Counted from the first letter of the stretch, positions 1-374 are shown. The stretch is DNA of 374 nucleotides from Escherichia coli (GCF_003334815.1 NZ_QOWO01000133.1); one strand, 5' to 3'. Notes: generated by a model not told the origin, from the sequence alone. Program-made: numbers and translations.

Positions 1-348
1 GATTTTCTGTATGCCGAGGCGTATGTGTACGCGCTGGCGCAAAAAATGATGCCGGAATATCAGGGAGGCTTCTGGCACTTCATCCGCCTGCCGGACGGTG
101 GCGGTTACATGATGCCGGATGGCGACCGTTTCCACATGGTGAACGGTGCAAACTGGTTTGACCGTACCGTGAGTGCTGATGCCGCAGGCATCATTCTGAC
201 TTCCCTTGTGATTAACCGCCAGTTGTGGCTGTACCACGACAGCGGGGATGCAGGACTGACCCAGCTTTACCGGATGCGCGATGCGCAGTTGTGGCGTCAC
301 ATCGAATTTCACCCCGAATGCAACGCGATTTACGCGGCACTGGACTGA
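1..348 (+). CDS. ArdB/KlcA-family antirestriction protein, 5'-partial (N-terminus lies upstream of the window)
   Basis: Frame +1 has no stop from nt 1 to TGA at 346-348; the ORF track's 25..348 sits in this frame and the 8 codons before it (DFLYAEAY) are also open. Translation carries motifs I recall from this family: Y-x-GG-x-W (58-75), DGGGYMMPD (94-120, cf. KlcA 'DGGFYMAPD'), VNG (139-147), SADAAGI (172-192, cf. KlcA 'SADAAGI'), and C-terminal Y-R-x-RD...HPEC-x-AIY-x-A-x-D ending at the stop (cf. KlcA '...HPEAAAIYRAID', YfjX-like '...HPE..AI..ID'). The match is from memory, not a search. The GTG at 25 is a track artifact, not the start, because family homology continues upstream of it and homologs have ~35-45 more N-terminal residues. 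Confidence 0.8.
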   Translation, partial: DFLYAEAYVYALAQKMMPEYQGGFWHFIRLPDGGGYMMPDGDRFHMVNGANWFDRTVSADAAGIILTSLVINRQLWLYHDSGDAGLTQLYRMRDAQLWRHIEFHPECNAIYAALD

Positions 349-359
349 TTAACGGACGG

Positions 360-374
360 GGCGGCAATGCCGCC
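360..374 (+). other. GC-rich stem-loop 12 nt after the stop (possible terminator stem or intercistronic structure), truncated by window edge
   Basis: Seen directly: ggcggc (360-365), loop aat (366-368), gccgcc (369-374) gives a perfect 6-bp all-G/C stem. G359 and G358 could extend it if nt 375-376 are CC. No downstream T-tract is visible because the window ends, so the function is unassigned. Confidence 0.3.

Follow-up and report, generated by a model that had tools for sequence, protein, structure and literature searches.

What lies at the locus?

The window, by which we mean the whole 374-nt stretch of Escherichia coli DNA that was analysed, covers the greater part of a plasmid gene for an antirestriction protein. 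The features needed at the outset, with coordinates counted from the first letter of the window, are these.

1-348, + strand: 3' 345 nt plus stop codon of a 141-aa gene of the ArdB/KlcA antirestriction family (Pfam PF03230 and KlcA/ArdB matches)
46-56, + strand: copy 1 of the direct repeat ATGATGCCGGA, read as K-MMPE-Y (Met-Met-Pro-Glu), a clade-specific motif
109-119, + strand: copy 2 of ATGATGCCGGA, read as Y-MMPD-G (Met-Met-Pro-Asp), a motif conserved family-wide
57-119, + strand: 63-bp interval lost in natural deletion alleles, here called d63 (DNA alignments of 12 d63 loci)

Frame +1 is open through the window to a TGA stop at 346-348, with 26 nt of downstream sequence after it, and the full gene lies at L001 5923-6348, the window beginning at gene position 79. 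This gene is a member of the ArdB/KlcA family, and antirestriction activity is predicted for it from the family. Indeed, the Pfam profile PF03230 (Antirestriction) is matched at E=9.7e-27 over model positions 2-92 of 92, a phmmer search against solved structures returns KlcA (2kmg, E=2.7e-13) and ArdB (2wj9, E=2.8e-5), and the only PDB matches of an AlphaFold2 model (pLDDT 77.6) at E<=1e-3 are the same two entries, 2kmg at TM 0.79 and 2wj9 at TM 0.73. In NCBIfam there is no family for the 141-aa protein and none for the 120-aa deletion form that is our main subject. KlcA, like ArdB, alleviates type I restriction in vivo (PMC9366191).

The window is 100% identical to the IncI1 plasmid pM217_I1, whose leading region contains a DNA methylase, DUF1380, the antirestriction gene, an ssb remnant, psiB, psiA and ardA, and the gene sits in the leading region of IncI/IncF-type plasmids. 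An abundance of anti-defence genes that are expressed early is a known property of leading regions (PMC11541004). Close copies (92-100% identical) are found in 3,508 of 5,426 complete E. coli genomes, with 4,838 of the 4,901 E. coli matches on plasmids, and further copies are carried by Klebsiella, Salmonella and Shigella plasmids.

Just past the stop codon lies a G+C-rich hairpin, GGGGCGGC-AAU-GCCGCCCC, which occupies window positions 357-374 and continues to L001 6378, the end of the window cutting through it (RNA fold of -21.6 kcal/mol, z=-3.5). Since it has no T-run, and since AAGGAG comes after it together with the ATG of the DUF1380 gene that is next in line, it is an intercistronic stem and not a canonical terminator.

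Is the repeat unusual, and where did it come from?

What a sequence-only reading of this DNA had singled out was an exact 11-nt direct repeat lying in frame within the gene, and a direct search of the sequence agrees, since the + strand has ATGATGCCGGA at 46-56 and 109-119 and nowhere else, with 63 nt from start to start. Both copies are read in frame +1, as KMMPEY and YMMPDG respectively. The identity is 11 nt and no longer, with differing bases adjoining the copies on each side (a/c before, a/t after), and the pair is the longest direct repeat in the gene. A longest exact direct repeat of at least 11 nt is seen in 2.3% of 5,000 dinucleotide-preserving shuffles of the window and in 2.2% of 5,000 codon shuffles, close to the chance expectation of 0.01-0.02 that had been put forward, and at a chance level of about 2% an 11-nt repeat is unremarkable and would not reach significance in a scan of many windows. 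In addition, 79% of shuffled proteins have a repeated tripeptide. Two M-M-P-acidic peptides need only use the same Pro codon for their 11-mers to be identical, and under the gene's own Pro usage such agreement has P=0.5.

The two motifs are not equally conserved within the family. The second reads YMMPD in nearly all retrieved homologs, YMAPD in KlcA and FMAPE in ArdB. The first MMP motif, on the other hand, is not seen outside the close E. coli-type clade: at 65-80% identity, homologs read WMPEY, LIPEY, LVPEY, HITDY or MITDY at this site, KlcA has RRLCERY, and the KlcA and ArdB residues there are unrelated. The earlier suspicion that only the second copy falls in a conserved motif is therefore borne out, and conservation of both MMP motifs among orthologs, which had been proposed as a check, holds for the second and fails for the first.

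One option raised at the time was an internal micro-duplication within the coding sequence, of which the two copies would be what remains, and an exact and in-frame identity of 11 nt is of course what such an event would leave. However, no similarity extends past the 11-mer on either flank of the two ATGATGCCGGA sites, the first motif is missing from homologs that keep the second, and, as we have seen, what KlcA and ArdB carry at its position is unrelated to it, so that we give this explanation next to no chance. Because the flanks are unrelated and the first motif is unconserved, ordinary substitution together with preferred codons would account for the repeat in place of duplication, and the other option that had been offered, convergent codon choice or coincidence, is supported as its origin both by the unconserved first motif and by the even odds of codon identity. 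The repeat thus looks like a chance by-product of two Met-Met-Pro-acidic peptides, and neither like a functional element nor like a duplication scar. The lack of conservation of the first motif, which had been named beforehand as the outcome that would point to coincidence, bears only on how the repeat arose, and not on whether the repeat can serve as a substrate for deletion.

As a side observation on the same sequence, an ATGATGCC core recurs at window positions 45-53, 109-116, 176-186 and 187-195. At 176-186 it takes the form of a partial direct copy, CTGATGCCGCA, within the conserved SADAAG motif, and at 187-195 that of an inverted copy, GGCATCATT, which is complementary to 45-53 and to 109-116. 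None of these copies was tied to a deletion or a structure.

Do natural alleles lack the interval between the copies?

The answer is yes. The 63-bp interval codes for residues 42-62 (MMPEYQGGFWHFIRLPDGGGY), and the homolog search gave 120-aa proteins that span the whole query and, when aligned, are without exactly these residues. The search for natural variants lacking the interval, which had been recommended as a test, yielded 32 distinct d63 proteins, read out from the homolog clusters, and 12 loci at the DNA level. Their hosts are E. coli (including O25b:H4-ST131), Shigella sonnei and Salmonella enterica, and their sources are NCBI, ENA and Logan assemblies with contigs of up to 134 kb (the records include GCA_012310385.1, GCA_001256075.1, GCA_021461265.1 and SRR36634109). 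One of these proteins, P0138, is the window's protein minus the 21 residues exactly, and was read on 24 contigs.

At the DNA level, all 12 of the loci fetched have a gap at gene columns 124-186 and keep a single ATGATGCCGGA, and 11 of them join the left flank of copy 1 directly to the right flank of copy 2 through that one 11-mer (junction sequence AAATGATGCCGGATGGCGACCG). The twelfth, L022, has a variant right-hand join, ATGATGCCGGA-CGGTGACCG (junction sequence ATGATGCCGGACGGTGACCG). The deletion can be placed equivalently at any 63-nt frame starting from 46 to 57. The neighbouring genes of the d63 loci are the same as in full-length plasmids, and the 120-aa form is the derived one, as KlcA and ArdB both contain the interval. 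The suggestion that the repeat is a substrate for an in-frame 63-bp deletion has accordingly found its counterpart in nature, in alleles that lack exactly that interval and retain one 11-mer.

How frequent are these alleles? A 51-nt query across the d63 junction had no hit among the roughly 4,900 gene copies of 5,426 complete E. coli genomes and none in 72,556 PLSDB plasmids, which by the rule of three places an upper bound of about 6e-4 on the frequency of d63. The query itself performs well: in a local control it found d63 alleles at E of about 1e-15 to 1e-17, with full-length alleles at 3e-6 or weaker, it is unaffected by low-complexity masking, and the same design recovered a 24-bp deletion allele (d24, described below) in both databases. 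The d63 alleles are real but rare, and persist at low frequency.

Given that every d63 example comes from a draft, short-read, Logan or metagenome assembly, and that none is present in complete genomes or in PLSDB, it might be asked whether errors in the sequencing or assembly of short reads have produced the 120-aa alleles. We consider this very unlikely indeed, for the examples stem from several pipelines, as judged by contig names (NODE_, k141_, k127_, Logan and NCBI draft records), one and the same allele is met again in samples that are independent of each other, and d63 alleles carry private substitutions on contigs of up to 134 kb with normal neighbours. Moreover, 34 complete genomes have the analogous d24 deletion, and the k-mers used by assemblers are far longer than an 11-nt repeat. 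The private amino-acid changes of d63 alleles were not used as evidence of relaxed selection, because clusters of distinct sequences are ascertained for being different.

A separate oddity concerns the d63 allele P0058, whose segment L011 108-470 has 238 chromosomal E. coli matches, versus about 59-63 for the other alleles queried. The excess consists of about 179 short chromosomal matches at >=99% identity, and the 28-mers unique to L011 fall at gene positions 36-81, 156-207, 282-336 and 333-363, none of them at the junction. These extra matches may be paralogs or further CRISPR spacers.

Has the deletion happened more than once?

The 12 loci represent 10 distinct d63 haplotypes, which span most of the allelic diversity of the gene (4-37 differences in up to 363 nt). 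Two of these are particularly telling: L019 is identical at 363/363 positions to the full-length alleles H197-H204 from complete genomes, and L024, from Shigella sonnei, is identical at 363/363 positions to a different full-length set, H205-H209. The two differ from each other at 17 sites, the nearest of which lie 3 nt to the left and 13 nt to the right of the junction, so that recombination could have moved the deletion only by way of a conversion tract of less than about 27 nt. In addition, L022 encodes the same protein as the other d63 loci with a join of the 24-bp-deletion type, and it was thus reached by another route. From these haplotypes and joins we conclude that d63 arose in at least two or three independent events.

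The alternative is that one ancient 63-bp deletion has been moved between backgrounds by homologous recombination or gene conversion among co-resident plasmids. The gene is visibly mosaic, and the d63 allele P0071 exemplifies this, being H112-like overall with an H31-like patch just to the right of the junction, and at most 97.1% identical to its closest full-length allele in complete genomes; some recombinational spread of d63 may therefore have occurred. As the explanation for all of the alleles, however, a single event seems rather unlikely to us: the full-length alleles to which L019 and L024 are identical (363/363 positions) are not the same ones, the differences between the two haplotypes flank the junction closely enough to require the very short tract just mentioned, L022 has a different junction sequence, and a rare allele would have to co-reside with each recipient allele in turn.

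We had for a time entertained a single origin ourselves, based on the first four alleles, which were cluster representatives and all had the H31-like right patch. This impression was a product of sampling bias, the cluster members showing both right-flank haplotypes and many backgrounds.

How might the deletion form?

Our preferred reading, to which we would assign a probability of roughly 80%, is that a chance repeat serves as a recurrent slippage-type deletion site, and that the resulting alleles are most likely loss-of-function. In outline, the two chance-born 11-nt copies, at a distance of 63 bp and unsurpassed in length by any other direct repeat of the gene, would act as the deletion site, and misalignment between them would remove one copy together with the 52 bp in between. 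Slipped-strand mispairing or template switching during replication is the likely route. The product stays in frame, as a 120-aa protein without residues 42-62, and the same 63-bp loss has been repeated in wild plasmids of E. coli, Shigella and Salmonella, where the alleles stay at low frequency. Homology of 11 bp is below the efficient range of RecA-dependent recombination. Both the molecular mechanism and its RecA-independence are things that we infer, the latter from the length of the homology and from published work in E. coli, where RecA-independent deletion between short direct repeats has been described (PMC5426353; PMC7145654), and RecA-independence is what would be expected there for homology of 11 bp. 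Folding of the interval as single-stranded DNA, on both strands and against shuffles, gave z of about -1, and hence no slippage-promoting structure.

The other deletions of this gene are instructive here, and they involve three further features.

220-229, + strand: copy 1 of CAGTTGTGGC (QLW), the second in-frame exact repeat
286-295, + strand: copy 2 of CAGTTGTGGC (QLW); natural 66-bp deletions join both copies
89-106 and 113-130, + strand: imperfect 18-nt direct repeat, 78% identical, with a TGCCGGA core, which underlies a natural 24-bp deletion

If all in-frame deletions of 12-90 nt in this gene are enumerated, 7,321 distinct products are possible, of which one has 11-nt microhomology and one has 10-nt microhomology, and natural alleles exist for both, namely d63 and d66. 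The CAGTTGTGGC repeat is the gene's second-longest, with 10 nt and copies 66 nt apart, and the corresponding 66-bp deletion (d66) is found in P0052 (locus L009) and again in P0141 (WP_201477491.1, L025 1501-1797), a 98-aa protein that has both the d63 and the d66 deletion. Neither the complete E. coli genomes nor PLSDB contain the d66 junction. The P0052 cluster, with its 327 members, might have passed for evidence of a common d66 allele, a candidate that we dropped as the members are mostly partial fragments. Further down the scale, a 6-nt repeat matches one 48-bp deletion allele, and deletions with 2-4 nt of microhomology are singletons.

The d24 allele is an in-frame deletion of 24 bp at window 100-123, with a product of 133 aa and a join of CCGGACGGT to GACCGT. 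Among the 5,426 complete E. coli genomes 34 have it, some of them on plasmids of O55:H7 and O103:H2 strains, and it is found in PLSDB as well. The TGCCGGA heptamer is found at 50-56 as well, inside copy 1 of the 11-mer. A junction at the exact 7-nt TGCCGGA repeat was considered for d24 and rejected, the DNA placing the crossover further in, at a single shared G of the imperfect 18-nt repeat.

It is at this point that the simplest explanation of all can be judged, according to which the repeat is an accident of codon usage without any consequence. Much of what we have described agrees with the first half of that statement, including the 2.2-2.3% of shuffled windows with an exact repeat of at least 11 nt, the repeated tripeptides in 79% of shuffled proteins, the P=0.5 for identical Pro codons and the unconserved first MMP motif in more distant homologs. 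The second half is hardly tenable, in the face of 32 protein variants and 12 DNA loci whose deletion endpoints lie inside the repeat pair, 11 of them exactly at the 11-mer, and of the fact that d63 is the sole product with 11-nt microhomology among the 7,321 possible in-frame deletions. Coincidence accounts for the origin of the repeat, but not for an absence of consequence.

What does the deletion do to the protein?

In the AlphaFold model, a helix at residues 25-42 is followed by strands at 51-55, 61-65, 69-74 and 79-84 and then by three helices. The d63 deletion takes out the loop after the helix, the whole of strand 51-55 and the start of strand 61-65. Of the 21 lost residues, 15 are at least 90% conserved (alignment A3, 33 full-length homologs), and the lost block is also common to KlcA and ArdB. 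With the first strand, part of the second and a conserved family block removed, d63 alleles are likely to be loss-of-function, as judged from the predicted structure and the alignment. Further decay is seen in some deletion alleles, consistent with loss of function, namely a stop codon in the d24 allele L017, frameshifts in the d63 members P0133 and P0137, and the double deletion in P0141.

There is a practical side to this for those who mine plasmid genomes. The 120-aa (d63), 133-aa (d24), 119-aa (d66) and 98-aa (double-deletion) products are all annotated 'antirestriction protein' despite missing conserved parts, and the 120-aa and 133-aa forms are without part of the beta-sheet core, so that surveys of plasmid anti-defence genes probably count some inactive genes among their number. 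The d63 alleles are carried by resistance and virulence plasmids that are widespread in E. coli, Shigella and Salmonella. Since the repeat would have no function of its own, the finding matters modestly; its appeal is that of a clean natural case, in which a chance 11-bp repeat in a coding sequence leads to a recurrent and predictable in-frame deletion allele.

Could the deletions be selected?

This question is raised by one further feature of the window.

76-107, - strand: protospacer of a natural E. coli type I-E spacer (32/32 match), with an ATG PAM that is the reverse complement of 108-110

The spacer in question, TAACCGCCACCGTCCGGCAGGCGGATGAAGTG, is 32 nt long and belongs to a type I-E array of E. 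coli GmM066 (L002 1501-1532), and it matches window 76-107 exactly. Its repeat-spacer-repeat unit is present in 4 of 5,426 complete E. coli genomes. On the crRNA-sense strand the protospacer follows an ATG whose G is the repeat's last base. The 63-bp interval takes in the whole of the protospacer together with the PAM. Full-length alleles match the spacer at 32/32 positions, d63 alleles have no match left, and d24 alleles match at 25/32 without a PAM, the 24-bp deletion having removed PAM and seed, with the loss of the 7 protospacer bases nearest the PAM.

On this basis the deletion alleles might be seen as positively selected, either as CRISPR escape variants or because they relieve the plasmid of a costly antirestriction protein, be the cost kil-type toxicity or its being sensed by a defence system. 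A type I-E spacer with a working-type ATG PAM does target the deleted interval, d63 and d24 both do away with what it needs, and klcA belongs to a kil operon, whose expression can be lethal (PMC9366191). Against selection, the spacer is found in only those 4 genomes and occupies an old position in its array, close to the trailer; a sweep would not be expected to leave d63 so very rare, with no instance among about 4,900 finished copies; and the d66 deletion leaves the protospacer untouched. Furthermore, the type I-E systems of E. coli are usually silenced by H-NS. We therefore think it improbable that the deletion alleles have been favoured in either way, and equally improbable that the in-frame deletions are selected escape variants and not neutral decay; the protospacer overlap allows the escape idea and does not support it.

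Were selection to be at work after all, chance repeats would let leading-region genes shed a CRISPR target, or a costly or sensed protein, with the downstream operon staying in frame and undisturbed. The overlap is in that sense a cheap idea on how leading-region genes might escape targeting. The preferred reading is still that of a chance-born deletion site whose products most likely lack function.

How does this compare with known systems?

With respect to the protein, the closest relatives are the KlcA (IncP, 2kmg) and ArdB (2wj9) systems, with which the window protein shares the PF03230 domain, sequence similarity and the predicted fold, together with a conserved GG.W....L.DGG.YM.PD block. 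The leading-region site beside ssb, psiB, psiA and ardA is a further point of likeness. The window protein differs from them in being only about 34% (KlcA) and 24% (ArdB) identical over the structural alignment, and both are without the first MMP motif, so that they lack the 11-nt repeat as well.

Microhomology-flanked deletions that remove CRISPR protospacers are a known escape route in phages and plasmids, and d63 resembles these in that a type I-E protospacer and its PAM lie between the repeats and are fully removed. In contrast to such escape deletions, the spacer here is rare (4/5,426) and any link of d63 to CRISPR pressure is hypothetical.

A further comparison is with deletions between short direct repeats in E. 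coli, where Albertini et al. 1982 reportedly provide a classic case in the lacI deletion hot spots and the work of Bzymek and Lovett 2001, cited in PMC5426353, is likewise said to be classic. As in those deletions, exact repeats bound the lost segment and one copy is kept, and it is the gene's longest repeats that have natural alleles, the 11-nt repeat giving d63 and the 10-nt repeat d66. The reciprocal 63-bp duplication, which some slippage models would lead one to expect, was not seen, there being no duplicated 21-aa interval among the 165 retrieved proteins, a limited sample in which such an absence carries little weight. One 225-aa protein (P0001, from NCBI, on a 4.4-kb contig) contains an in-frame tandem duplication of residues 50-133 (FWHF...HPEC, 84 aa), which is unrelated to the 21-aa interval. 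Our search of the literature found no paper on an in-frame deletion in klcA. All in all, d63 is a known mutational mechanism in a new natural example and not a new mechanism, and what sets it apart from the laboratory reporters of the known system is that it is a standing natural polymorphism, carried by wild plasmids in three genera.
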